Positions 15,583-58,769 of a DNA stretch of 64,000 bases are shown here, one piece after another. This stretch comes from Kiritimatiellia bacterium (lineage in GTDB: Bacteria; Verrucomicrobiota; Kiritimatiellia; UBA8416; JBFIFS01). Under the pieces are notes generated by a model. The model saw nothing but the letters and a program-made list of their open reading frames with translations. It did not search any database and was not told where the DNA came from. Both the position numbers and the translations under genes were made by a program. The DNA lies in NCBI GenBank assembly GCA_041602695.1, contig JBFIFS010000002.1, positions 2,644 through 66,643 on the forward strand, read 5' to 3'. Position 1 is the first letter of the stretch, and each line of letters starts with the position of its first letter.

Positions 15583-18486
15583 ATGAAACCAGCGACAACA
15601 CCAGACATCCTAGTTTCCCTGCCCCCAGGCATGAGCCGGGGATTTGCAAGCGTCTACCCGGAACGTGCCGACAGCCTGTTCGTCACCTCGGACCCTGAGG
15701 GCTCACAGCTCGGCTCCGGCGGCGGCACTGTACACCTGCTGCTGGAGGCCTATCGTAAAACAGGCAGTGGTAAGAGCTTTCTCGACTGGCTGTCTGCAGG
15801 ACAGAAATGCCTCATCCACGGTAGCGGTGAGAGCCGGCGCCTTCAGTCCTATTCCTCGCAGGGCAAGCCGATGATCCCCTTGCCGGATATGCCCTCCCGC
15901 AAGGCCATACCCGCGCAGCCGGCGCTTATTGACCTCCAGATAGAAAGCTACTCTCGAATCGCCCGGATCGCTCCGGAGAGCTATCGCGTAATGGTCACGT
16001 GCGGGGACGTCCACCTCTCCTTTTCCGAGCTTATCCCGGCTTTTCCTGAAGCTGATATTCTTTTTGTAGGCATGCTGGCTCCTCCGGAAGAGGCCCAGCA
16101 CCATGGCGTTATGATCTGCGATGCTTCGAACCCCTCTCATCTGCTCAGATTCCTTCAGAAGCCGGAACCGGAGACTCTGTGCTCCCTCGACAGCACCGAA
16201 ACGTTTCTCCTGGACACTGGTGTCTGGCTGTTCAGCGAGAAGGCCGTCCTCGCCCTGATGGGCAAGTGCGGTATCGACCCCGAATCTGTTCGCGCCAGTG
16301 ATCTGATTCTGCCAAAGAACTATGATATGTTCTCGACCTTTGGCCCCGCCCTCGGTGATGAACCCGTTCAGAACGATCCTGATATTTCCCCGCTTCGCGG
16401 CGCCGTGCTGGCCCTGCCTGACTCCAAGTTCTACCACTTTGGCTCTTCAAGCAGCATCATCGCCTCTACGGCTGCACTTCTGGCTCCGGCTGAAGACAAG
16501 CGCTCTTTCGCAAATGCCTCGCTCAATACCGATGGTGCTCCAATCCTGGTAGGATCCACCGTCGCCGCCCCGCTATCAAATGACAACCGGCATATCTGGA
16601 TTGAAAACTCGTTCATCGGATCCGACTGGAGCCTGTGCCACAGCCATATAATAACAGGTATACCCGAGAACAGCTGGGCGCTAAGCGTTCCCGCCTCAAC
16701 CTGCCTGAGCCTGCTCCCGCTGCAGGATGGTTCGGCGCTGAAATTCTACGGTTTCGAAGATGCAATGCGGGGCACACTGGCGGGCGGCGTGCAATTTATG
16801 GGAGCCCCCCTCTCAGATTGGCTTTCGGCACGAAATCTTTCTTCCAGCGACTTGAGCTTTGCGCTTGAAACCGATATTTATGACCTGCCGCTTTTTCCTG
16901 TCCTTCACGACTTAGTTGACGCTGGTCCGATGGTCCAATGGCTGATCGCCAAGGCTCCAGAGACTGCCCCGCATCTGGCTGAAGCCTTCATCAACAGCAC
17001 AAGGGTATCAGCCCGTGATACGCTTTCCATAACCAATCTGGAAGCACTTCAGCAAAGCCGAATCGGGCCCGTCCAATCGATGTTGGAACATTCGGCCTGC
17101 GATCCAGCGGCCTGGAGCGCGCACTGCCGCGCCCACGATCTATCTTCACTTGCCAAGCTCGTATCCTGCAACTCGCTAGCTCTCCCCCCTGCCGGCATAG
17201 AATGGAAGCCGGGAGAGGCACCCTCTCTTGCACTGGGAGCTATTCATGAAAAGATGCTACAAGACGAGTGTGGTTTCGCCGGCCAATCAGAGGCCGCGTT
17301 TTCGCTTCTTCGCGACCTGATCGTGCACGAGATGGAGATTTCACCGATCGCACCCAAACGAAATGTGATGGAGGACCAGTTGGTCTGGGGCCGGTCACCG
17401 CTTCGCCTCGATCTGGCCGGAGGCTGGTCTGACACTCCGCCATACTGCCTTGAGCATGGTGGTCGCGTTGTCAACCTCTCCGTTGATCTCAATGGACAGC
17501 CCCCCATCCAGGTCTTTGCGCGTATCAACAACCGCAAGGACATTCTCCTTAGAAGCATCGACCTCGGTGTCAGTGAGACAATCCCGTCATACGAGGCACT
17601 CCTTGAACCCGCCGCACTGGGAAGCGAGTTTGGAATCGCGAGAGCCGCTCTTGCTCTATGTGGATTTGACCCCAGGTTCCATACGAACCACAGCTACCGG
17701 ACGCTCCAGAAGCAGCTCGATGCTGAATTTGGTGGCGGCATTGAGCTGAGTATGGTCTGTGCCGTTCCTAAAGGCTCAGGCCTCGGCACCAGCAGTATCC
17801 TGGCCGCCACTGTCATAGGAACCCTAAATGAGCTTTGCGGCCTGGGGCTTAATACCAAAGCTATCTCTCAACGAACACTGGCCTTGGAGCAGCTTCTTAC
17901 CTCCGGCGGCGGCTGGCAGGACCAGATTGGCGGCATCACTCCCGGAGTCAAAATCCTGAAGACAGGCCCAAGCATAGCACAGGACGCTGAAATCAGCTGG
18001 CTTCCCGGAAATTTATTCGAGAGCGAATACGCCAACAGGACGGTCCTCCTGTACTACACTGGAATCACCAGGGTCGCACACGATATACTTGGCGAGATTG
18101 TAAGAAACATGTTCCTTAATTCAGCACCCCATCTTTCAATCATTGATGATATTGCGGCTAACGCGCTTTACGCCGCGGAAGCCTGCCAGAAGAACAATCT
18201 CGAACAATTGCACGATGCGGTAAGGCGCAGCTGGAGGCTGAACCAGCTGCTTGATGCCGGTACGAACCCGCCGGCAGTACAGGCGATTCTCGACAGAGTC
18301 GGCGACGCGATTGCAGCATGCAAGCTTCTTGGAGCAGGCGGCGGAGGGTATATGCTGATCTTCGCCAAGGACGAGAGCGCCGCACATCACATACGCGACA
18401 CCCTCAACGCCGCGCCGCCAAACAAAACATCACGGTTTGTTGACCTGGCCCTGTCCTCAACAGGACTTCAGGTGACAAAAAGCTAG
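15583..18486 (+). CDS. fkp: putative bifunctional L-fucokinase / fucose-1-phosphate guanylyltransferase (Fkp-like)
   Basis: 967 aa. The C-terminal GHMP kinase domain has motif I (PLRLDLAGGWSDTPPY), motif II (PKGSGLGTSSILAATV) and motif III (GAGGGGYMLIF). The long N-terminal pyrophosphorylase-like domain gives the same architecture as Bacteroides Fkp. Confidence 0.6.
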   Translation: MKPATTPDILVSLPPGMSRGFASVYPERADSLFVTSDPEGSQLGSGGGTVHLLLEAYRKTGSGKSFLDWLSAGQKCLIHGSGESRRLQSYSSQGKPMIPLPDMPSRKAIPAQPALIDLQIESYSRIARIAPESYRVMVTCGDVHLSFSELIPAFPEADILFVGMLAPPEEAQHHGVMICDASNPSHLLRFLQKPEPETLCSLDSTETFLLDTGVWLFSEKAVLALMGKCGIDPESVRASDLILPKNYDMFSTFGPALGDEPVQNDPDISPLRGAVLALPDSKFYHFGSSSSIIASTAALLAPAEDKRSFANASLNTDGAPILVGSTVAAPLSNDNRHIWIENSFIGSDWSLCHSHIITGIPENSWALSVPASTCLSLLPLQDGSALKFYGFEDAMRGTLAGGVQFMGAPLSDWLSARNLSSSDLSFALETDIYDLPLFPVLHDLVDAGPMVQWLIAKAPETAPHLAEAFINSTRVSARDTLSITNLEALQQSRIGPVQSMLEHSACDPAAWSAHCRAHDLSSLAKLVSCNSLALPPAGIEWKPGEAPSLALGAIHEKMLQDECGFAGQSEAAFSLLRDLIVHEMEISPIAPKRNVMEDQLVWGRSPLRLDLAGGWSDTPPYCLEHGGRVVNLSVDLNGQPPIQVFARINNRKDILLRSIDLGVSETIPSYEALLEPAALGSEFGIARAALALCGFDPRFHTNHSYRTLQKQLDAEFGGGIELSMVCAVPKGSGLGTSSILAATVIGTLNELCGLGLNTKAISQRTLALEQLLTSGGGWQDQIGGITPGVKILKTGPSIAQDAEISWLPGNLFESEYANRTVLLYYTGITRVAHDILGEIVRNMFLNSAPHLSIIDDIAANALYAAEACQKNNLEQLHDAVRRSWRLNQLLDAGTNPPAVQAILDRVGDAIAACKLLGAGGGGYMLIFAKDESAAHHIRDTLNAAPPNKTSRFVDLALSSTGLQVTKS

Positions 18487-48268: not shown

Positions 48269-49185
48269 CGTCCTTCCTCATGCGGCTCGACGTGAACGAC
48301 AGCATCAACAACGTCAGGGCCCTCACACTGGAGCTTTCGCTTGACCGCTTCCGCTATGTCATGCCCCTCGCGAACCGTCATGTCGGCATCCACCCGCACA
48401 TGCATATCAACATACAGTCCGGGCCCTACGCGCCTGCCTCTGACCGCATGTATATTTCTTACCCCGCTGATGCTTTCCGCGAGGGCCTTGATCTTCTCCG
48501 CATCCTTTGGCGAGGATATCCCGTCCGTAAGCTCGACAAGCGCCCTATGCCCAATCCTGTAAGCAGCACGAACAATGATAACGGCGACAAGCAGTTCACC
48601 GACGTGGTCTACAAACGCCAGCTGCGGCCACACAATCGACACCCCCACGGCAAGCGCTGCAGGAATCGAACTTATAGCGTCACTCCTGTGATGCCACGCG
48701 TTAGCAAGCAGCGCGCGCGATCTGGCCGCACGCCCCTCCCTCGCCGTGAAGTGATACATGATTTCCTTCGCGACCATCGATGTGACGGCCGCGACAAGCG
48801 CTATCATGCCCGGCCCGTCCTGATGCGTCTCGCCAAGGCCCAGTATGCCGTCAACCGCGAGCCAGATTCCGCCCGCACCCAGCACCCCACCGACAAAGAG
48901 AGTCACCAGGGCTTCCATTCGCCTGTGCCCATATGGATGGCACTTGTCCGGGGGCGACATCCACCATTTGACGCCGAATATGATAGCCAAGTCCGTCGAA
49001 AGGTCTGTCAGGGTGTGAAAAGCATCGGCAGTCACAGCCTTACTGCCGCCGACAATACCGGCCCAGAACTTGAAAACCATGAGGGCGACATTAAGGCACA
49101 GACCTGCCGAGGTTATCTTTCTGATTCTGCCGACATCCTGGGAAACGGTATCGAGCGCGGGGCCACGCACGTCAGTCAGCCACAT
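48265..49185 (-). CDS. cation diffusion facilitator family transporter
   Basis: Six TM helices with the CDF signature (HTLTDLSTDLAIIFG...HRRMEALVTLF). Confidence 0.8.
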   Translation of the reverse strand: MWLTDVRGPALDTVSQDVGRIRKITSAGLCLNVALMVFKFWAGIVGGSKAVTADAFHTLTDLSTDLAIIFGVKWWMSPPDKCHPYGHRRMEALVTLFVGGVLGAGGIWLAVDGILGLGETHQDGPGMIALVAAVTSMVAKEIMYHFTAREGRAARSRALLANAWHHRSDAISSIPAALAVGVSIVWPQLAFVDHVGELLVAVIIVRAAYRIGHRALVELTDGISSPKDAEKIKALAESISGVRNIHAVRGRRVGPGLYVDMHVRVDADMTVREGHDIAEAVKRKLQCEGPDVVDAVVHVEPHEEGR

Positions 49186-50608
49186 CGCCGTCTATCTGAA
49201 AATCGATCAGCGCGCTCATCTTGTCACCAGTCAGCTTGGATTCGTTCCTTGCCTTCGAGATGAAACCATCCATAGTGAAATCATCAAAGCCAAACGTCTT
49301 GCAATAGATTGCTGCGCCTGCGTACAGGTCCGCCTTGCTCTTGCCGACATCTTCGTTCTTCTCCAGGTAGTGCGAGAAGAAACCGATAACGCGCTCTTTC
49401 GGTATCTCCACCCACGGAATCAACTTTTCCTGAACATAAATGCCCTGCCCGTCGGCCTTCGGTATGTCCAGGGCGCCGCGCGCAGTCTTCCATCCATAAG
49501 ACATCGGCTTCTTCTCGAACTGCGCTATAAGCCAGGTCATTGCGTTCGCCAGCAGCCTGTAGCGCTCAACAGGTATGTCCAGCGCTGTTACCGCCTCCTC
49601 GAACGTCAGCGATGACTGCAGGTCCTGCACCTGCTGCATTGCATCCGTGAATTGATATGATTTGAGAAGCTCAGGTAGACCGCCATAGAATCCGGCCGCC
49701 CTCGCGACCTCTCGACTTCTGTTCTCCTCACGCTGCTGAGCCAGGCGCCTCTGCTCCGCCTCGGCGTCAGCCGCCCGCTTCTCTTCAGCCACCTCGTCCC
49801 TCATCGACTCGAATTTGGGAAGGATTGCTTCCGCAGCCGCGAGCTCCTCTGCCATTCCATTTCTCAGATTCTTAGCCATTGGCACCAGCTCGGCAAATCC
49901 CGCCTGCGCGGCCGCGGCTTTGAAGGCAGTTGGCGCCTCCTTAACCCTGCCTACGATTTTCTCGCTCTGAGTCAGAATCAGCGCGCTCTCGTCAATCCTC
50001 GCCTCAATTACGCCAACGTGCTCGCACAGCTTTTCATATAGGTCCTGCCCGGCCTTGATTCGCTCTCCAAGCTTGCCGCCTATCTCATGTTGTGCCGCAT
50101 CCCCGGCTCCAGTTGCGCCAGACGTGCCCACAGCCGGTGCCGGCGGCGGCTTTGGCGCACCGTGACCAGTCAGCCCAGCGGGCATCTCCCGGCCCTTCTC
50201 ATCTACCATGACCCCGGTCCTAATAGCACCCCCGGCCTTGTCGCTCTCCGCAGGAACGGCCTTCTTGGTCTGGGCGGCTACGGTCTTCTTCCACGCTTCA
50301 GCCTTCTTCTTCTGGTCGTATTCCCGGTCATAGACCCTCGGCGCATGCTCGTAACCCACTATCTCCGGAACCAGGTTTGATGCGGTACCGAGAACCTTCC
50401 TGGCTTTCGGGGCAAATTCCTCAATACCCTCCAGAGAAGCTGCAATCTCAGCATATTGCACCTCAGCGCTCTCGACCTGCGCTTTGAAGGCCATCGCCTC
50501 CGCCTGCGCTTTCGCCTTATTCTGACTGACTCCGTAAAGGACGCCGCCGACAACCAGACCCAGTATGACAAGTATAATCGCAATCCTCATTGCATGCTCC
50601 TTTGGCAA
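49172..50608 (-). CDS. hypothetical membrane-anchored coiled-coil protein
   Basis: N-terminal TM helix (IAIILVILGLVVGGVLYGV), a long Ala/Glu/Lys-rich coiled coil with a Pro-rich segment, and a C-terminal globular part. No recognisable domain. Confidence 0.45.
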   Translation of the reverse strand: MPKEHAMRIAIILVILGLVVGGVLYGVSQNKAKAQAEAMAFKAQVESAEVQYAEIAASLEGIEEFAPKARKVLGTASNLVPEIVGYEHAPRVYDREYDQKKKAEAWKKTVAAQTKKAVPAESDKAGGAIRTGVMVDEKGREMPAGLTGHGAPKPPPAPAVGTSGATGAGDAAQHEIGGKLGERIKAGQDLYEKLCEHVGVIEARIDESALILTQSEKIVGRVKEAPTAFKAAAAQAGFAELVPMAKNLRNGMAEELAAAEAILPKFESMRDEVAEEKRAADAEAEQRRLAQQREENRSREVARAAGFYGGLPELLKSYQFTDAMQQVQDLQSSLTFEEAVTALDIPVERYRLLANAMTWLIAQFEKKPMSYGWKTARGALDIPKADGQGIYVQEKLIPWVEIPKERVIGFFSHYLEKNEDVGKSKADLYAGAAIYCKTFGFDDFTMDGFISKARNESKLTGDKMSALIDFQIDGDVAD

Positions 50609-50666
50609 TCTAAATGCACAGACTTATTTGCTTTAAAAAAGTTCTTAAGTGTATACTACTAGGACG

Positions 50667-52169
50667 ATGGAGAACCTGCAATTCATCAATCCCAAAAAAA
50701 TCGCCGCCTTGTCAAACCACGCTGCGGCACTGGTAACCATATTTACACTGTCCGCATGCGCCGGCTGCGTCTCTTCGCCCCCCAAGCAGAAGTACTATTC
50801 GGAAAACCTGACCATAACCGCCACTCAGCTTAATTCTATAAACGCAAGGATCTTCGGAAAAGTTCTTGAAAAGTCGGCTGTCCGCGAGCTCGGCCCCGAG
50901 CTCGTTGTAGACCTCAAGACAGGCAGGCTCCCGACAAACGTCCTCGCCCTCATTAAGGATACGCACTCGCCACTGCTCGTATTCCCTGGCCCTGACGCAG
51001 ACCAGTCTGACTGGCGCGACTCAATCAATAACGCGCCCGAAAAGAAGAGGTTCAGGCCCCTGCTGGTCTCGAGGCCCGACGGCAGGCAGATCAACACGCG
51101 ATTTGGCATCGATGAGTTCGGCCGCATGAAGCAGGAACTCGGATTTGAGGCGGTACTGGTCGTTAATCTACTCGACGGCCTGGCCCGAAAAGGGCCCGTC
51201 CGCGAAGCGGCGGAACGCGCAGCCGGACTGATAGCCTACTGCAATGGCCAATACGCAGTAAAACTCCCCCGGGCCCTGCGCCATTGGCCCGGAATCAGGG
51301 CCAAGAACGGCAACCCCATCCCATTTCAGGTCGAATACGTCCAGCTTGGAAGCCACTTGGACTCAGCCGCCTACCAGAGCGCGGTCAGCGCAGCCCTGCC
51401 GCATTTCGACACAAAACAGCTCGCTCAGTGGTATGTCGATTGTCTTACTGTATACATCCAGCATATTCGTTCAGCCGATCCAACTATTAAGATCATCCTC
51501 GATGCTGAAATCGCGCCCGATATTACAGCGACCGTTTACCAAAACAGCTACATTGCGGAGAACATCAATGTCCTTGCGGTTTCCGCCGCTGGGCCGGACA
51601 CACCTGACTCACTCTCCCGCTATGCCGATATTGCCAAAACACTGGGCAAGCCAATTGCCGTAACTGAGTGGATCGGCGCAGCCTCCATACTCGATTCCAC
51701 AAAATATTTAAACGCCCTCATTCGCCACGGCGCCAGCATCGAGTTCGCAGCGCAGTCGCCGCTGCTTGGCCAGACAAGCCCAGCCGCTGTCATCCGGATA
51801 CCAAAGGCCCCCAACGAAAGCCCAAACATCACGGCCACGGGCGCTGCCAGCGCCCTTTATGCCCGACACCACGGCCGGCATCGCCTCGAAGTAACGCGCA
51901 AAAACCAACAGGACAGCGGCGAATTGGACATCGTAGTCACGGCCTCCGAGACCGCTATATACCTGCACGCGGTAAACAGCAGCCCAACACGACGGGCACG
52001 AATAGTCGCAGACTGCAGTGCGCACAAGGTCGCGGACTCATTCAGCATGCGCTCGCTGACCTCAGCGGGCGCGAGCACTACCAGCACGCCAATCAGGTCC
52101 ACGCGAAAGATTCCTGTCGTGCTGCCGCCCGAATCAGTTTCAGTCATCACCCTACCCCTTAAACCATAG
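50667..52169 (+). CDS. lipoprotein, glycoside-hydrolase-like (TIM-barrel plus beta-sandwich architecture suspected)
   Basis: Lipobox LSAC after a hydrophobic h-region. It precedes three sulfatase genes. The hydrolase assignment is tentative. The track ORF uses a GTG at 50649. Confidence 0.45.
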   Translation: MENLQFINPKKIAALSNHAAALVTIFTLSACAGCVSSPPKQKYYSENLTITATQLNSINARIFGKVLEKSAVRELGPELVVDLKTGRLPTNVLALIKDTHSPLLVFPGPDADQSDWRDSINNAPEKKRFRPLLVSRPDGRQINTRFGIDEFGRMKQELGFEAVLVVNLLDGLARKGPVREAAERAAGLIAYCNGQYAVKLPRALRHWPGIRAKNGNPIPFQVEYVQLGSHLDSAAYQSAVSAALPHFDTKQLAQWYVDCLTVYIQHIRSADPTIKIILDAEIAPDITATVYQNSYIAENINVLAVSAAGPDTPDSLSRYADIAKTLGKPIAVTEWIGAASILDSTKYLNALIRHGASIEFAAQSPLLGQTSPAAVIRIPKAPNESPNITATGAASALYARHHGRHRLEVTRKNQQDSGELDIVVTASETAIYLHAVNSSPTRRARIVADCSAHKVADSFSMRSLTSAGASTTSTPIRSTRKIPVVLPPESVSVITLPLKP

Positions 52170-52267
52170 TATTCCGGGACTGGACCTGCCCCCGTTTGCT
52201 ACTTGCATTGCTTTACGCACGACCTAATATTGAGGTTCGCGGGCAGTATTACCCCTTACAACGAATG

Positions 52268-53764
52268 AATATATTACTCATAACCAGCGACCAGCAGCAC
52301 TGGAATACACTCGGAATAAACAATCCTGAGGTCAAGACCCCAAACCTGGACAGGCTGGCCTCGGAAGGGACAGTATTTGACCGCGCCTACACGGTCAACC
52401 CGACCTGCACGCCTACCCGTGCGTCAATCATAACGGGCAAATACCCCAGCCAGCACGGAGCATGGTCCCTCGGGACCAAGCTCCCGGAAGACGAGCACAC
52501 CGTCGGGGAAGACTTTGCGGCGGCCGGCTTCAGGACCGCGCTCGTCGGTAAGGCGCACTTCCAACCCCTTGCATCGACCGAGGAATACCCCTCACTTGAA
52601 GCCTATCCCATCCTGCAGGACCTGGAATACTGGCGCAGGTTCCATGGGCCCTTTTACGGTTTCGAGAGGGTTGAACTCGCCCGCAACCATACTGACGAAG
52701 CGCACGTCGGACAGCACTACGCCATCTGGATGGAAGACAACGGGCTGGACAACTGGCGCGACTACTTCTCGGCACCGACGGGAAACGCGAAAGCACAGAA
52801 ACACACATGGCCTATACCGGAGGAATACCACTACAACGCATGGATTGCCGAGAAGAGCAGCGATGTAATGCAGGAATGCGCCGAGAAGAACCAGCCTTTT
52901 TTCCTCTGGGCCAGCTTTTTTGATCCGCACCCCTCGTACCTCGTTCCCGAGCCTTGGGACAGGATGTATGACCCTGAGAAGATCACGGTGCCATCCGTAA
53001 CTGACGGCGAGCATGACAATAACCCGCCCCACTTCAGGATGACTCAGGAGGAAACACCTGATTTCAGCATATACCAGGAGGCAGACGGCAGCGGCTGCCA
53101 TGGCTTCCGATCACACCTTACTGACAGCGACAGACTCGCGAAGAACATTGCCGTCTATTACGGAATGGTATCCTGTATGGACAAATACATCGGCAAAATA
53201 CTGTCGAAACTTGAAGAGCTCGGAAGCAAAGACGAAACGATGGTTGTCTTCACCACTGATCACGGCCATTTCTTCGGCCAGCATGGGCTAATTGCCAAGG
53301 GCGCATTTCATTATGAGGACATGATCAAAGTTCCTTACATAGTGAGCTGCCCCGGGACAGTACCTGAAGGCAGGCGCTCCGACGCCCTTCAGAGCCTGGT
53401 CGACCTTCCGGTGACCTTCCTCGAGCTCAACAACCTGCCTGTCCCCCGGACTATGACCGGAGTAGATCAGTCAAAGGTCTGGACCGGAATCCGGGAGAAA
53501 GCCAGAGACCACGTAATAGTGGAAAACAGGCATCAACCAACAAAAGTATTCCACAAGACATACGTAGGTCAGAGATACAAAATCACGACTTATTACAACC
53601 AACCCTACGGAGAGCTGTTTGACCTGGAAGACGATCCAGGTGAAACAAACAACCTATGGGACGATCCCGAATCCATGCAACTAAAGAATGAGCTGCTGCT
53701 CAAGCTGATACATGCGGACATGGGCATCGAGCCCATTTGGATGCCTAGGATAGCCGGAGCATGA
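52268..53764 (+). CDS. sulfatase (Cys-type, S1 family) without signal peptide
   Basis: MNILLITSDQQHWN...CTPTRASIITGKYPSQHG contains the C-x-P-x-R formylglycine motif. The track ORF begins at a TTG at 52196. Confidence 0.8.
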   Translation, partial: NILLITSDQQHWNTLGINNPEVKTPNLDRLASEGTVFDRAYTVNPTCTPTRASIITGKYPSQHGAWSLGTKLPEDEHTVGEDFAAAGFRTALVGKAHFQPLASTEEYPSLEAYPILQDLEYWRRFHGPFYGFERVELARNHTDEAHVGQHYAIWMEDNGLDNWRDYFSAPTGNAKAQKHTWPIPEEYHYNAWIAEKSSDVMQECAEKNQPFFLWASFFDPHPSYLVPEPWDRMYDPEKITVPSVTDGEHDNNPPHFRMTQEETPDFSIYQEADGSGCHGFRSHLTDSDRLAKNIAVYYGMVSCMDKYIGKILSKLEELGSKDETMVVFTTDHGHFFGQHGLIAKGAFHYEDMIKVPYIVSCPGTVPEGRRSDALQSLVDLPVTFLELNNLPVPRTMTGVDQSKVWTGIREKARDHVIVENRHQPTKVFHKTYVGQRYKITTYYNQPYGELFDLEDDPGETNNLWDDPESMQLKNELLLKLIHADMGIEPIWMPRIAGA

Positions 53765-55104
53765 CAATGAGCAGCAGGCCCAACATTCTATTCTTTTTCA
53801 CGGATCAGCAGCGCTGGGACACTTGCGGCTGTTACGGGCAGAAGATCGACCTTACGCCGAACCTGGACAGGATGGCAGAAGAGGGCGTTCTGTTTGAGAA
53901 CGCTTTCTCTTGCCAGCCAGTCTGCGGCCCCGCGCGGGCAGCTCTGCAGACGGGCAAATACCCAACGCGCCTCGGCTGCCATACAAACAACCGCATTCTC
54001 CCTCTGGATGAAAACACCATAGCAAAGCAACTCTCCGCCGCAGGCTACGAGACAGCCTATATCGGCAAGTGGCATCTCGCATCACAGGGCGCAAGGGACG
54101 GTGCGGAGAACTTTAGAGAAAAACCCGTCCCCGTTGAACGACGCGGCGGATACAGGGATTTCTGGCTGGCATCAGATGTACTGGAGTTTACTTCCCACAG
54201 CTACGACGGGTACATGTACCAGGACATGGAACGACGCGACTTCCCTGAAGGGAAGTTCAGGGTCGATGTTCAGACCGACTGGACAATTGAATATCTTCAG
54301 GATAGAAAAACCGACAGGCCTTTCTTCCTGTTCCTGTCCTACATCGAGCCGCACCACCAGAACGACCACGGCTGTTACGAAGGCCCTCATGGATCCAAGG
54401 AGCGATACGCCCAATATGAAGTGCCAGGCGATCTCGAAGGAACCAACGGAGACTGGCGGCAAAACTACCCCGATTATCTGGGATGTATCAATGCCCTCGA
54501 CACCGGCCTTGGCCGCATCAGGGATGCACTTGCTGAGCGTGGCGAGCTGGACAACACAATAATAATCTTCACAAGTGATCATGGCTCGCACTTCTGCACC
54601 AGGAACGGTGAATACAAGCGTTCCTGTCACGACGGCTGCATTCGCGTCCCCATGGTCATATCAGGGCCAGGCTTCACGGGTGGTACTCATGTAAAAGAGC
54701 TGGCAAGCCTCATAGATCTTCCCCCAACCATCATTACATCAGCCGGACTGAAGCCCATCGGCATGGACGGCTTTGCACTGAACTCGCTTGCTGCGGGCGC
54801 TGCACAGAACTGGCAGGAGGAAGTCTTTTTGCAGATCAGCGAGAGCCAGTGCGGGCGCGCAATCCGATCTAAGAAATGGACCTACAGCGTGGAGGCACCT
54901 GGCAAGTCAGGAGGAGACGCTTCAAGCGACTTATACGTTGAGGCCTTTCTCTACGATAACGAGACCGACCCACACCAGAAGAACAATCTAGTCGCCGCAC
55001 CCGAAACTGCCGGCATCCGGGCGCACCTGCGCGAGCGCCTGATCAAGCGAATGGTAGCGGCAGGCGAAACCGCACCGAAAATACAAACCGCTCTGCAAGA
55101 GTAA
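53761..55104 (+). CDS. sulfatase (Cys-type) without signal peptide
   Basis: NILFFFTDQQRWD...CGPARAALQTGKYP contains the C-x-P-x-R motif. It is coupled to the upstream gene by an ATGA overlap. Confidence 0.8.
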   Translation: MTMSSRPNILFFFTDQQRWDTCGCYGQKIDLTPNLDRMAEEGVLFENAFSCQPVCGPARAALQTGKYPTRLGCHTNNRILPLDENTIAKQLSAAGYETAYIGKWHLASQGARDGAENFREKPVPVERRGGYRDFWLASDVLEFTSHSYDGYMYQDMERRDFPEGKFRVDVQTDWTIEYLQDRKTDRPFFLFLSYIEPHHQNDHGCYEGPHGSKERYAQYEVPGDLEGTNGDWRQNYPDYLGCINALDTGLGRIRDALAERGELDNTIIIFTSDHGSHFCTRNGEYKRSCHDGCIRVPMVISGPGFTGGTHVKELASLIDLPPTIITSAGLKPIGMDGFALNSLAAGAAQNWQEEVFLQISESQCGRAIRSKKWTYSVEAPGKSGGDASSDLYVEAFLYDNETDPHQKNNLVAAPETAGIRAHLRERLIKRMVAAGETAPKIQTALQE

Positions 55105-55113
55105 GGAGAAGAT

Positions 55114-56586
55114 ATGAGAGTTCTATACCTGGACCTGGACACCCTGCGCCCTGACCATCTCGGCTGCTACGGATATCACCGCAACACTTCGCCAAACATC
55201 GACAGGATCGCCGCCGAAGGAATTAGGTTTGACAATTTCTACGCGTCCGACGCTCCTTGCCTCCCATCGCGTGCCGCCTTGATGAGCGGCCAGTTCGGCA
55301 TTCATAGCGGCGCTGTCGGCCATGGGGGCACCGCCGCTGATATGCGCCTGCAGGGCGAATCCCGCAGCTTCGTCACCAGACTGAGCGGTCACGCGCTACC
55401 TGCCATATTTAAACGCGCCGGCATGCATACCGCGTATATAGGCGGCTTTCCTGAAAGGCACTCCAGCTTCTGGTACTATGCAGGCTTCAGAGAGATACAC
55501 GACACCGGCATGGGAGGCATGGAGTCTGCCCACCACGTCACGCCAACAGCCCTCGATTGGATCGAAAACAACGCGGAAAAAGAAGACTGGTATCTGCACG
55601 TGAACTACTGGGACTCACATACACCCTACCGCGCCCCCGAAGAGTTCGGGAACCCCTTCGAAAAAGAGCCGGCAGCGAAGTGGATCACGCAGGATGTTCT
55701 CGACAAGCATCGTGCAATGCCTGGGCCGCATGGTGCTCAGGAAATCAGCATGTATGACAACAAGACGTCACCCAAATTCCCGCGTCAACTCGGCGAGATA
55801 AAGGATCTCGACGACTTGAAAAAACACTACGACGGCTATGACTGCGGCACTCGTTACATGGACAGCCACATTGGCCAGCTGTTCGAGGCCCTCGAAAAGG
55901 CGGGCGTCATGGATGACCTGGCCGTAATAATCAGTTCCGATCACGGAGAAAACCATGGCGAGCTTGGGCTTTATGGCGAACATGCAACGGCCGACCAAAT
56001 CACTTGCAGAATCCCCATGATAATCAAGTGGCCAGGCGCCCGAAAGGGAACTGTAGACACAGGGCTCCATTACAACCTGGACCTTCCGCCGACCCTCGCC
56101 GACCTGCTGGGGCAAAAACAGCGTCCCGAATGGGACGGGCAAAGCTTTGCTGAAGCCGTTACTGAAGCGAAGGATTGCGGGCGGGAGTACCTCGTCTTGA
56201 GTCAGTGCGCGCACGTATGCCAGCGAAGCGTACGCTGGAAGGACTGGCTTTACATGCGGACATACCACGATGGCTACCACCTCTTTCCTGAGGAAATGCT
56301 TTTCAACCTTAAAGACGACCCTTACGAGCAAGAAGACCTCTCATCCGAGCACCCGGACATAGTCGCAGAAGGATCGGAAACGCTGAAAACATGGCACGCC
56401 GAGATGATGGCGACTCAGCCGTATGGCTACACCAATGACCCGATGCAGACGGTTCTCAACGAGGGTGGACCGTTGCATGCAAAAGGCTTCCTGCCAAAGT
56501 ATATCGAACGACTCAGGCAGACCGGACGCGAGGAGCACGTTGAAGAGCTTATCCGGCGCCACCCTGAGGAGTTCAAGCCCACTTAA
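55114..56586 (+). CDS. sulfatase (Cys-type) without signal peptide
   Basis: MRVLYLDLDTLRPDHLGCYG...CLPSRAALMSGQFG contains the C-x-P-x-R motif. Confidence 0.8.
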   Translation: MRVLYLDLDTLRPDHLGCYGYHRNTSPNIDRIAAEGIRFDNFYASDAPCLPSRAALMSGQFGIHSGAVGHGGTAADMRLQGESRSFVTRLSGHALPAIFKRAGMHTAYIGGFPERHSSFWYYAGFREIHDTGMGGMESAHHVTPTALDWIENNAEKEDWYLHVNYWDSHTPYRAPEEFGNPFEKEPAAKWITQDVLDKHRAMPGPHGAQEISMYDNKTSPKFPRQLGEIKDLDDLKKHYDGYDCGTRYMDSHIGQLFEALEKAGVMDDLAVIISSDHGENHGELGLYGEHATADQITCRIPMIIKWPGARKGTVDTGLHYNLDLPPTLADLLGQKQRPEWDGQSFAEAVTEAKDCGREYLVLSQCAHVCQRSVRWKDWLYMRTYHDGYHLFPEEMLFNLKDDPYEQEDLSSEHPDIVAEGSETLKTWHAEMMATQPYGYTNDPMQTVLNEGGPLHAKGFLPKYIERLRQTGREEHVEELIRRHPEEFKPT

Positions 56587-56797
56587 TGGCCCCGCACCGC
56601 CCGTTTCGGGCGTGCCTACCAAAGGCGGTGCGTCGAACGCCAGGACAGAACGCTTTGTGTGCCTTTTCCATACACAGCGCTACCAGCGACTGAGCACTTG
56701 ATTAACAAGTAAAGAAATATTCACTCGATTCGTATACCAGTCGTTGACAAGATTCACAGAAAGTATAATAATCCTATGCAGTTAATTTAGGAGTTGA

Positions 56798-57919
56798 TTG
56801 ATTGTGAATAGAGCTAAAAGCAACATGCAGAGGCCCCGCCGCGGCCGGCCTCCAAAGTTTGACAAGATTCTGGCAGCAGTAAGGGCGGACATCCTTTCGG
56901 GTAAATTTCAACCGGGAGACAGGCTTCCGACGCGCGAAGAACTCGCCAAGAAGTTTGGCAGCACCAAGGTTACGATGCAGAAGGCAATGGATATCCTTCT
57001 GGAAGAAGGAATTCTGACAGCAAGGCGCGGTGCGGGGACATACGTTACAAATGCCGCGGAATCGAAGCTACCCTACTTCCTTCTTATCGATCAACCTCAA
57101 GGCAAATCCCGGTTCAAAGACGCGGTGGTGAACGAAGCGAAAAAGCATTCCGACAGCCGTCAAGCCCTCAGCACCTGCTACTACAAAGGCCTTCACTACC
57201 GCTCTGACGAGCTTGATCGCCTCTATACCCTGATGGCAAGACAGCGGGTTGCGGGCCTTCTCATTGCCGTATCCGCACTAAAACTTGACGGCTCTCGCCT
57301 GCTCGATTTCCCCGAGATTCCAAAGGTTTTCATTGGCACCCCGCACACCTACGGTGCATACCCGAGCGTTACAAACGCCGGCAGAAGGTCTATTTACCGT
57401 CGGGTGCTTGACTACTTCAAAGAGAAGGAACGCCGCAGTGCGGCGGTAATAATGAGTACGGTGGATGATGATCTGCTGCTGGATTCACCTTTTAAAGGTC
57501 TTGCAGATGAAAGAGACATCCACGCCCCCCCCGAATGGATACAGGCCGCCCCACTGCGCGCGCCAGCAGCCGCGGCCCGACTCGCGCTACTGATGTTCCG
57601 TGACCCAGCCCATCGCCCGGAAGCCCTTCATATTGGGGACGATGGCCATGTGCCCGCGATTACGGAGGCCCTTGCAACCCTCAACATACGTGTACCAGAG
57701 GATCTCCTCGTAACTGCGCACGCAAACTTCCCATACCCTACCAGGTCATGCGTCACCGCGAGACGAATCGGATACGACGCCCGCGAGTTCATCAGCAATG
57801 GGCTGGAATTCCTGGATCAGCAGCGCCGCGGGGAAACCCCTGAAGACCGCGAGGTAGAACCGGTGTGGCAGGAAGAAGTCCCCCGTGGATCAGGCAGGGC
57901 CCAGTCGGACGATGCCTGA
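56798..57919 (+). CDS. GntR-family transcriptional regulator fused to periplasmic-binding-protein-like sugar-binding domain
   Basis: N-terminal winged HTH (ILSGKFQPGDRLPTREELAKKFGSTKVTMQKAMDILLEEGIL) plus a LacI/PBP-type C-terminal domain. A consensus TTGACA...TATAAT promoter lies upstream. Confidence 0.7.
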   Translation: MIVNRAKSNMQRPRRGRPPKFDKILAAVRADILSGKFQPGDRLPTREELAKKFGSTKVTMQKAMDILLEEGILTARRGAGTYVTNAAESKLPYFLLIDQPQGKSRFKDAVVNEAKKHSDSRQALSTCYYKGLHYRSDELDRLYTLMARQRVAGLLIAVSALKLDGSRLLDFPEIPKVFIGTPHTYGAYPSVTNAGRRSIYRRVLDYFKEKERRSAAVIMSTVDDDLLLDSPFKGLADERDIHAPPEWIQAAPLRAPAAAARLALLMFRDPAHRPEALHIGDDGHVPAITEALATLNIRVPEDLLVTAHANFPYPTRSCVTARRIGYDAREFISNGLEFLDQQRRGETPEDREVEPVWQEEVPRGSGRAQSDDA

Positions 57920-57941
57920 GCCAAAAGACAAGGCAGTGGCC

Positions 57942-58235
57942 ATGGCGCATGCATGGCGAAAGTTCATGCGTCTGACGAGAGGCCGCATACCGACACTCCG
58001 CGCGCTGGAGGTGATTCTTCTCGAAGAAAAGGATCCAGAGATTAGTGCGTTCTTTTCGACTCTCAGCAAAGAAATGAATGACGGTTCGACGATGAGTGAA
58101 GCCGTAGAGAAGCACGGAAAACTTGTATCCCCCTCTGTACTGGAACTCCTGCGCTATGCTGAAAAAACCGGCGCGTGGGATGAAATACTGCTCGAGATCG
58201 CAGACGGCCTCGAGGAAGGCACCTTTACGGCATAG
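57942..58235 (+). CDS. stand-alone T2SSF (GspF/PilC) domain mini-protein
   Basis: FMRLTRGRIPTLRALEVIL...MSEAVEKHGKLVSPSVLELLRYAEKTGAWDEILLEIADGLE closely follows the repeat unit of platform proteins (LSEAL...FPPLYVAMVRAGEESGTLDEVLERLADYLE). No TM segments. The track ORF starts at 57885. Confidence 0.4.
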   Translation: MAHAWRKFMRLTRGRIPTLRALEVILLEEKDPEISAFFSTLSKEMNDGSTMSEAVEKHGKLVSPSVLELLRYAEKTGAWDEILLEIADGLEEGTFTA

Positions 58236-58241
58236 GGAGTG

Positions 58242-58769
58242 CTAGAGGCCCCAGCCGTTATACCACGCCCGCTCGGGGAAAGACTTTCGCCCCCTCTGTT
58301 CGCACGACTCTTTCGGAACTCCAATGGGAAGAAGCACCCTTACATCCAGGGCTTCCGGAACGCCAAGGATTGCCCCTATCCTGCTTGCAAGCCCATCTTT
58401 GCGCAACATTCCGTCAAGCCATACTGAGGCATAACCCATAGCAGTTATGGCCAGAAGCATGTTTTCCACGGAAGCCGCGCAATCCTCGACTCCAAACGAC
58501 ATGTCGCCATACACCGCTTTGTGTTCAGCAACACAGAGAATCATTGCCTTGGCCGTTCTTAGATAGACGCGGTCCTCAACGAGCGACGCTATCGCATTCA
58601 GCTTTTCAGGGTCATCTACGATGACAAAGCTGGTCGTCTGCGCGTTACACCCGGACGGCGCCCTTATGCCGGCATCCACAATCCGCTCAAGGTCCTCGCG
58701 CGGCACAAGCCTGTCCTCAAATTCGCCTCGATAGCTGTGCCTCTTTACAACTGCATCAAAGAAATCCAC
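58242..58769 (-). CDS. nitroreductase family protein
   Basis: HSYRGEFEDRLVPREDLERIVDAGIRAPSGCNAQTTSFVIV matches the FMN nitroreductase fold. Confidence 0.75.
   Translation of the reverse strand: MDFFDAVVKRHSYRGEFEDRLVPREDLERIVDAGIRAPSGCNAQTTSFVIVDDPEKLNAIASLVEDRVYLRTAKAMILCVAEHKAVYGDMSFGVEDCAASVENMLLAITAMGYASVWLDGMLRKDGLASRIGAILGVPEALDVRVLLPIGVPKESCEQRGRKSFPERAWYNGWGL

Follow-up and report, generated by a model that had tools for sequence, protein, structure and literature searches.

The closest described counterparts of the genes considered here come from the Kiritimatiellales strains F1 and F21, degraders of sulfated polysaccharides for which family S1 sulfatases without a signal peptide have been predicted (van Vliet et al. 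2019, PMC6388578), and from Bifidobacterium breve, for which an intracellular sulfatase cluster for GlcNAc-6-sulfate is described (Egan et al. 2016, as summarized in PMC7326374; also PMC8966484). In Pontiella agarivorans, 96% of the sulfatases have signal peptides (PMC10880615). Here, we analyzed a 64,000-nucleotide stretch of DNA from a Kiritimatiellia bacterium (contig JBFIFS010000002.1 of assembly GCA_041602695.1, positions 2,644 to 66,643 of the forward strand), referred to below as the window, with all coordinates counted from its first nucleotide. Five tightly spaced genes lie on the + strand at 50.6–58.3 kb of the window, and three consecutive genes among them, S1, S2 and S3, encode leaderless sulfatases (these gene labels are distinct from the name of sulfatase family S1). 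We propose that the segment at 52170–58241 is a self-contained cassette for the cytoplasmic desulfation of imported sulfated sugars under an AraR-type regulator, a reading that we favor, carbohydrate substrate included, with moderate confidence.

Gene sets of this kind are already known from sulfatase-rich bacteria, and leaderless family S1 sulfatases, which have been documented in bulk, form a sizeable share of the sulfatase repertoire of the PVC (Planctomycetes–Verrucomicrobia–Chlamydiae) type; to our knowledge, almost none of these leaderless enzymes has been studied. The site of desulfation determines which organisms are able to exploit sulfated glycans, and whether the sulfate is set free in the community or within the cell. 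The present locus offers a compact, testable example, with three clades in one operon and a dedicated regulator, and comparative data tie two of the three clades to anaerobic sulfatase-maturating enzymes (anSME), TauE and ABC sugar importers.

Gene organization and predicted location of the sulfatases

S1 (52265–53764, + strand, 499 aa), S2 (53761–55104, + strand, 447 aa) and S3 (55114–56586, + strand, 490 aa) all match the Pfam Sulfatase family PF00884, with E = 1e-47, 1e-56 and 5e-44 and bit scores of 163.3, 192.9 and 151.2, respectively (Pfam cutoff 25). The formylglycine motif of this Cys-type family, C-x-P-x-R, is found as CTPTR at residue 48 of S1, CGPAR at residue 55 of S2 and CLPSR at residue 49 of S3. 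An initial annotation of the window, made from the sequence alone, had reported three consecutive sulfatase genes of this type with the second translationally coupled to the first, and both statements are borne out: the S1 stop and the S2 start overlap in the tetranucleotide ATGA at 53761–53764. The spacer between S2 and S3 is 9 nt, and the AAGGAG Shine-Dalgarno sequence of S3 overlaps the S2 stop. The three proteins share only 23–27% mutual identity and, as judged from their sequences, belong to three different clades.

All three sulfatases lack a leader. The Pfam Sulfatase domain begins at residue 2 of S1, counted from its ATG start, at residue 7 of S2 and at residue 3 of S3. In-frame stops lie 5 codons before S2 and 4 codons before S3, with no alternative start in between, which rules out a leader for these two. 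For S1, the in-frame stop is 35 codons upstream and the only alternatives are two TTG codons that would add 19 or 23 residues (MLLALLYARPNIEVRGQYYPLQR). This extension lacks a basic n-region, its hydrophobic stretch covers only ~7 residues, and it is not signal-peptide-like. The sequences thus offer no space for a Sec, Tat or lipoprotein leader. No twin-arginine motif is found in the N-termini of the three sulfatases, and an exact-sequence look-up returned public gene calls with the same starts for all three. The same short N-termini are seen in their relatives: the formylglycine Cys lies at residue 44–57 in 116 of the 120 best homologues of S1 and at residue 49 in 115 of the 120 best homologues of S3, while the closest relatives of S2 mostly align from their own residue 1–8. 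Leaderlessness thus appears as a trait of each whole clade and not as a start-codon artefact. Being made without leaders, the three enzymes are predicted to be cytoplasmic, a location that we consider very probable and that agrees with the cytoplasmic desulfation first suggested for the locus.

The regulator gene (56798–57919, + strand) encodes a GntR winged helix (PF00392, residues 23–83, E = 1e-15, 57.5 bits) followed by a LacI/GalR-type sugar-binding domain (PF13377 Peripla_BP_3, residues 205–365, 30.1 bits versus a cutoff of 26.5), and the N-terminal domain of AraR (4egy) is among its PDB matches. The sugar-binding GntR regulator that had been noted downstream of the sulfatases is therefore present with both domains, and by analogy with AraR it would repress transcription until a sugar releases it. 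Four other loci (L082, L052, L040 and L081) have regulators of this architecture beside clusters of leaderless sulfatases.

The 211-nt spacer between S3 and the regulator gene holds two candidate signals. A G+C-rich hairpin at 56594–56615 (+ strand; palindrome CGCCCG-TTT-CGGGCG at 56598) lies just 3' of the S3 stop and may mark where the sulfatase transcript ends; it lacks a T-run, however, and a scan with a terminator consensus did not call it. A sigma-70-like promoter of the regulator gene lies at 56744–56772 (+ strand; TTGACA-N17-AATAAT, 11/12 matches). This is the only such site in the 8 kb at 50400–58400; shuffled sequence averages ~4 such sites, and the site is therefore statistically unremarkable. 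The consensus sigma70 promoter of the initial annotation holds as to the site but not as to its −10 element, since the TATAAT proposed there lies at a 14-nt spacing and the partner at 17 nt is AATAAT.

Active sites and relatives of S1, S2 and S3

S1 has the full canonical catalytic set. D9, Q10, C48, R52, K96, H98, H222, D332 and K345 are invariant in 120/120 homologues and H333 is present in 119/120, the metal ligands being D9/Q10 and D332/H333. More than 5,700 matches at ~70% identity were found across phyla, nearly all of ~500 aa, with labels that include Poribacteria, Lentisphaerae, Kiritimatiellae, Planctomycetota, Chloroflexi, Armatimonadota, Spirochaetia and Paenibacillus; the best match in the genome collection is 73% identical. 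S2 also keeps the canonical residues, in the motifs TDQQ, GKWH, PHH and SDHG with the following Lys (YK). Its clade is smaller and more divergent, with closest relatives that are ~44–60% identical, and its best PDB matches, at weak E-values, are carbohydrate sulfatases: 5g2v, a Bacteroides GlcNAc-6-sulfatase (2e-44), followed by 7lha and 7stt. For S1 the best PDB match is 4upl (SpAS2; E = 6e-41), which is also the best for S3 (E = 1e-29), and entries for phosphonate monoester hydrolases (PMHs) were also matched in the PDB search of these two proteins.

The S3 family is large, with ~65% identity across phyla, and S1 and S3 each keep ~65–70% identity over more than ten phyla. Among named homologues, those nearest to the two proteins carry the labels Lentisphaerae, Kiritimatiellae, Planctomycetota and Victivallales. 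The S1 and S3 clades thus combine a very wide distribution with high conservation, and no member of any of the three clades has been characterized.

S3 has a non-canonical active site. The Cys, Pro and Arg of its formylglycine motif are invariant in 120/120 homologues, as they are in the S1 family, and the metal ligands D7/D9 and D276/H277 are kept and invariant in the 120 homologues. By alignment, however, the lysine of the GKxH motif is replaced (the column holds G or P) and is followed by invariant F112, R115 and H116, and the second sulfate-binding lysine is replaced by an invariant E289-H290 pair. As invariant Arg-His and Glu-His residues take the place of the two sulfate-binding lysines, we tentatively raise the possibility, still an unlikely one, that the S3 family is a new catalytic variant of the family S1 sulfatase fold, within a conserved cytoplasmic desulfation unit of three uncharacterized clades. 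If so, the change in S3 could point to a substrate class outside the assigned sulfatase subfamilies, such as a sulfamate or N-sulfate, a doubly anionic sugar or a phosphonate-type ester. This is the one feature of the locus that could lead to new enzymology; it is otherwise an ordinary accessory cassette.

Placement of the enzymes in non-carbohydrate sulfatase families was also considered. The choline sulfatase model TIGR03417 gave scores of 179.5 for S1, 141.1 for S2 and 114.8 for S3 against a cutoff of 433.45, the arylsulfatase model PRK13759 gave 236.9, 182.7 and 129 against 481, and the NCBIfam Mn-arylsulfatase model gave 133 against 850, so that all scores fall far below the respective cutoffs.

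The cassette, its flanks and its orthologues

A related genome (L087) shows how the sulfatase genes are set into their surroundings. There, the upstream 478-aa gene and the orthologue of the lipoprotein gene that precedes S1 in the window are followed directly by genes for a nitroreductase and an SNF transporter, with neither sulfatases nor regulator; the nitroreductase is 74% and the SNF transporter 70% identical to the window proteins. The segment 52170–58241, comprising S1, S2, S3, the regulator gene and an ORF of 116 aa, is an insertion or deletion relative to L087, and the sulfatase-regulator block is therefore an indel cassette while the lipoprotein gene is part of the backbone. In a second genome fragment (L088), genes for a cation-efflux protein, a 471-aa protein and the lipoprotein follow each other in the same order as in the window. 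The 116-aa ORF (57885–58235, + strand) encodes a partial T2SSF domain of the GspF/PilC type (PF00482, E = 2e-9, profile positions 3–90 of 125), overlaps the 3' end of the regulator gene by 35 nt and is missing from L087, and it probably represents the remains of a gene at the right-hand border of the indel. No convincing direct or inverted repeats that would mark an insertion scar were found around the cassette. Codon usage gave no sign of recent transfer, as the G+C content at third codon positions in the cassette (0.60–0.66) is within the range of the window background (0.644 +/- 0.022).

The lipoprotein (50667–52169, + strand, 500 aa) is a neighbor outside the cassette. Its N-terminus (MENLQFINPKKIAALSNHAAALVTIFTLSAC) is a signal peptide ending in the lipobox L-S-A-C. 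No Pfam family was detected by hmmscan at E <= 0.01; a structural model (pLDDT 87.6) gave glycoside hydrolase (GH) family 51 arabinofuranosidases as the top Foldseek matches (E = 5e-26), and it superposes with a TM score of 0.69 on the (beta/alpha)8 barrel and beta-sandwich of the GH51 alpha-L-arabinofuranosidases of Thermotoga (3s2c/3ug3). The protein differs from these enzymes in being only ~17% identical to them, in its lipid anchor and in loop deletions, including that of the loop after the nucleophile, whose motif TEW is kept. In the family alignment as well as in a direct alignment to 3s2c, S229-H230 occupies the position of the GH51 acid/base N-E pair, so that His230 stands for the acid/base Glu and Ser for the preceding Asn. 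The search gave no more than 18 relatives at E <= 0.001 (19 matches with the query counted), and the two nearest (P0126 and P0127) are degenerate at the catalytic positions too. From these replacements the lipoprotein is unlikely to function as a retaining glycosidase. The glycoside-hydrolase-like build that had been noted for it is confirmed for the fold, while its membership in the sulfatase module is not supported, given the lost acid/base residue and the L087 and L088 loci. Divergent from the lipoprotein gene is a gene for a 478-aa protein (49172–50608, − strand) with an N-terminal membrane helix and no Pfam match, a pairing kept in L087 and L088.

The rest of the window is of housekeeping character, with genes for riboflavin synthesis, tRNA synthetases, RNase Y, ATP synthase and ilvC. 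A gene for an Fkp-like bifunctional fucokinase/GDP-fucose pyrophosphorylase, also named in the initial annotation, is present at 15583–18486 (Fucose_pyrophosphorylase and GHMP kinase domains), 34 kb from the sulfatases among genes for diaminopimelate epimerase, exonuclease VII and RNase Y. Fkp is an anabolic enzyme of GDP-fucose salvage. The Fkp-like gene is uninformative on the sulfatase substrate, and the fucose-containing sulfated polysaccharide that had been proposed from it loses its basis.

The gene neighborhoods of orthologues were compared at 81 genome loci for the S1 family and 80 metagenome loci for the S3 family. An anSME gene (radical SAM and SPASM domains) lies within 8 kb of the S1 orthologue at 30 of the 81 loci, of which 26 are from Poribacteria and the others are labeled Victivallis, Armatimonadota, Verrucomicrobia and Zipacnadia; at 10 of the 80 S3-family loci an anSME gene adjoins the S3 orthologue. 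In the 26 poribacterial loci (L005, L016–L018, L020 and others) the anSME gene usually stands directly upstream of the S1 orthologue on the same strand, and the pair looks like a conserved maturase-sulfatase operon.

Orthologues of the three genes also occur near one another. In a Victivallales metagenome-assembled genome (MAG; L082) the order is IclR, a sulfatase, an S1 orthologue (63%), an S3 orthologue (64%), TauE, anSME and a regulator with GntR and periplasmic-binding-protein domains, and in an Armatimonadota MAG (L060) it is a response regulator, an S2-like gene (61%), an S1-like gene (69%), TauE and anSME. On a short metagenome contig (L089), an S2 orthologue (74%) immediately precedes an S3 orthologue (80%), and S2 orthologues adjoin S1-like genes in L060 and L006. 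From the arrangements in L082, L060 and L089, the three clades co-locate repeatedly, in different combinations. A fixed S1-S2-S3 trio was rejected, as an S2 orthologue is found in only 2 of the 81 S1-family loci and most S3-family loci are without S1 or S2 orthologues. The L060 and L082 clusters (L060:1076-6944 and L082:5056-12863) are compact groups of leaderless sulfatase genes followed by TauE and anSME, suggesting a portable unit for desulfation in the cytoplasm that also exports the sulfate it releases.

Links to carbohydrate metabolism recur beside both families. CUT1 ABC sugar transporters (a binding protein and two permeases) adjoin S3-family genes at ~10–12 loci, and GH3, GH20, AraC regulators and further leaderless sulfatases are found beside S3-family genes as well. 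S1-family genes are adjoined by genes for GH123-like, DUF4434 and DUF4832 proteins in Victivallales and by a PfkB sugar kinase gene in a Kiritimatiellae MAG. In the Chloroflexi loci L025 and L077, genes of GH4, a family of cytoplasmic NAD-dependent glycosidases, lie to either side of the S1-family orthologue. Among 113 ORFs that are immediate neighbors of S1-family genes at 32 non-poribacterial loci, we counted 6 sulfatases, 4 GH4, 4 TauE, 4 PhyH, 4 methyltransferases, 3 AraC and 3 anSME. Taken together, the carbohydrate link from these neighborhoods is real but moderate. At two S3-family loci (L085 and L086), the orthologue (68%) adjoins a gas-vesicle (gvp) gene cluster.

Proposed function and comparison with known systems

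In the proposed pathway, S1, S2 and S3 would be made without leaders, and a cytoplasmic maturase whose gene lies elsewhere in the genome would oxidize the cysteine of the CxPxR motif to formylglycine; this is most likely the radical-SAM enzyme anSME, because anSME so often accompanies the orthologues. Each enzyme would then remove a different sulfate ester from imported small sulfated sugars or oligosaccharides, the released sulfate may leave the cell through an anion exporter such as TauE, likewise encoded elsewhere, and the regulator is predicted to repress the operon until a sugar effector binds. A sulfated-glycan utilization module with oligosaccharide import, as initially envisaged, finds indirect support in the ABC sugar transporters, glycoside hydrolases, anSME and TauE beside the relatives, but not in the window itself.

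Several observations weigh against this reading. No sugar transporter, anSME, FGE, TauE or active glycosidase was found in the 64-kb window, where anSME was searched for by tblastn, and anSME/radical-SAM proteins and FGE by Pfam scans of 40 further ORFs outside the five genes; the steps of import, maturation and export are therefore drawn from other genomes. The S1 upstream region and the regulator promoter showed no shared operator, and a comparison of the regions upstream of the lipoprotein, S1 and regulator genes for a common operator gave only trivial matches. The direction of the indel is not evident from codon usage. Most S3-family loci lack S1 and S2 orthologues alike, and a universal neighbor of the S1 family is ruled out by heterogeneous neighborhoods in which the commonest classes each account for only 4–6 of the 113 ORFs. 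With E-values of 1e-30 to 1e-44, the PDB matches are weak and spread over different subfamilies, and therefore no SulfAtlas subfamily or substrate can be assigned. SpAS2 is a promiscuous arylsulfatase of the arylsulfatase (AS)/PMH clade with no known natural substrate (PMC12421950), so that it gives no functional assignment for S1 or S3. Finally, with both canonical sulfate-binding lysines replaced, S3 may not be a sulfate-ester hydrolase at all.

The main rival explanation retains the cytoplasmic location and replaces the glycan: the substrates would be small non-carbohydrate sulfate esters (aryl, alkyl, choline-type or other organosulfates) or, for S3, phosphonate or phosphate esters, and the enzymes would scavenge sulfur or carbon, as with Pseudomonas AtsA, with BetC and with the promiscuous SpAS/PMH enzymes. 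We regard this as rather unlikely. That S1 and S3 both have SpAS2 as their best solved homologue, with PMH entries also matched, fits such a substrate, as SpAS2 belongs with EfAS and the PMHs to a promiscuous clade (PMC12421950), and ~65–70% identity over many phyla suggests a common small substrate; the heterogeneous S1-family neighborhoods and the loss of both sulfate-binding lysines in S3 point the same way. Set against this, the regulator has a LacI-type sugar-binding domain and is not of the CysB/Cbl or BetI type, no betaine or sulfonate genes lie nearby, the choline-sulfatase and arylsulfatase models score below their cutoffs, the nearest solved homologues of S2 are carbohydrate sulfatases, and ABC sugar transporter and GH genes recur beside the orthologues.

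Two further alternatives are less likely. The lipoprotein, the three sulfatases and the regulator could form one unit resembling a polysaccharide utilization locus, in which a surface glycosidase cuts a sulfated (fuco)glycan and the products are desulfated inside the cell. The GH51-like fold agrees with this, as do the shared strand of the lipoprotein and sulfatase genes, the gap of only 95 nt and the lack of a predicted terminator between the lipoprotein gene and S1. The arrangement is nevertheless improbable, since the lipoprotein orthologue is conserved with the same flanks and no sulfatase in L087 and L088, its acid/base Glu has become His and its post-nucleophile loop is deleted, its nearest relatives are also catalytically degenerate, Fkp is distant and anabolic, and no fucosidase lies nearby. 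Alternatively, the sulfatases could be exported after all, through mis-called starts or a non-classical route, and be periplasmic like most sulfatases of PVC bacteria and Bacteroidota. Signal peptides are indeed the rule in related sulfatase-rich bacteria, as the proportion in Pontiella agarivorans illustrates (PMC10880615), but the stops close upstream of S2 and S3, the sole S1 extension, which does not resemble a signal peptide, the missing twin-arginine motif, the same short N-termini in hundreds of homologues and the cytoplasmic partners adjoining the orthologues (GH4, PfkB and ABC importers) make export highly improbable and bring it, as far as sequence can tell, close to refutation.

Among solved structures, SpAS2 (4upl), a member of the AS/PMH clade of the alkaline phosphatase superfamily, offers the closest comparison for S1 and S3. 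It is leaderless like S3, with its native Met aligning with S3 residue 1, and it has a His as the fourth metal ligand in a D-H pair; it differs in keeping the Lys that S3 replaces with His290, and the phmmer matches are weak. The window regulator shares with AraR of Bacillus subtilis the two-domain build of a GntR helix-turn-helix domain and a LacI/GalR-type effector domain, though the similarity is low and the sequence match is confined to the helix-turn-helix domain.

As a system, the cassette is closest in logic to the ats2 cluster of Bifidobacterium breve UCC2003, which reportedly combines an intracellular sulfatase with an anSME, a transporter and a regulator for GlcNAc-6-sulfate. Both would rely on import of a sulfated sugar, a cytoplasmic formylglycine sulfatase matured by anSME and a dedicated sugar-responsive repressor. 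The window cassette differs in having three sulfatases and no transporter or anSME gene, either in the cassette or elsewhere in the 64-kb window; partner genes of this kind are present in the related loci L082 and L060. With the Kiritimatiellales strains F1 and F21 the window shares leaderless formylglycine sulfatases of family S1. In those strains the enzymes are bulk predictions with no operons or substrates assigned, whereas here a defined operon of three genes, accompanied by a regulator gene of its own, encodes them amid housekeeping genes.

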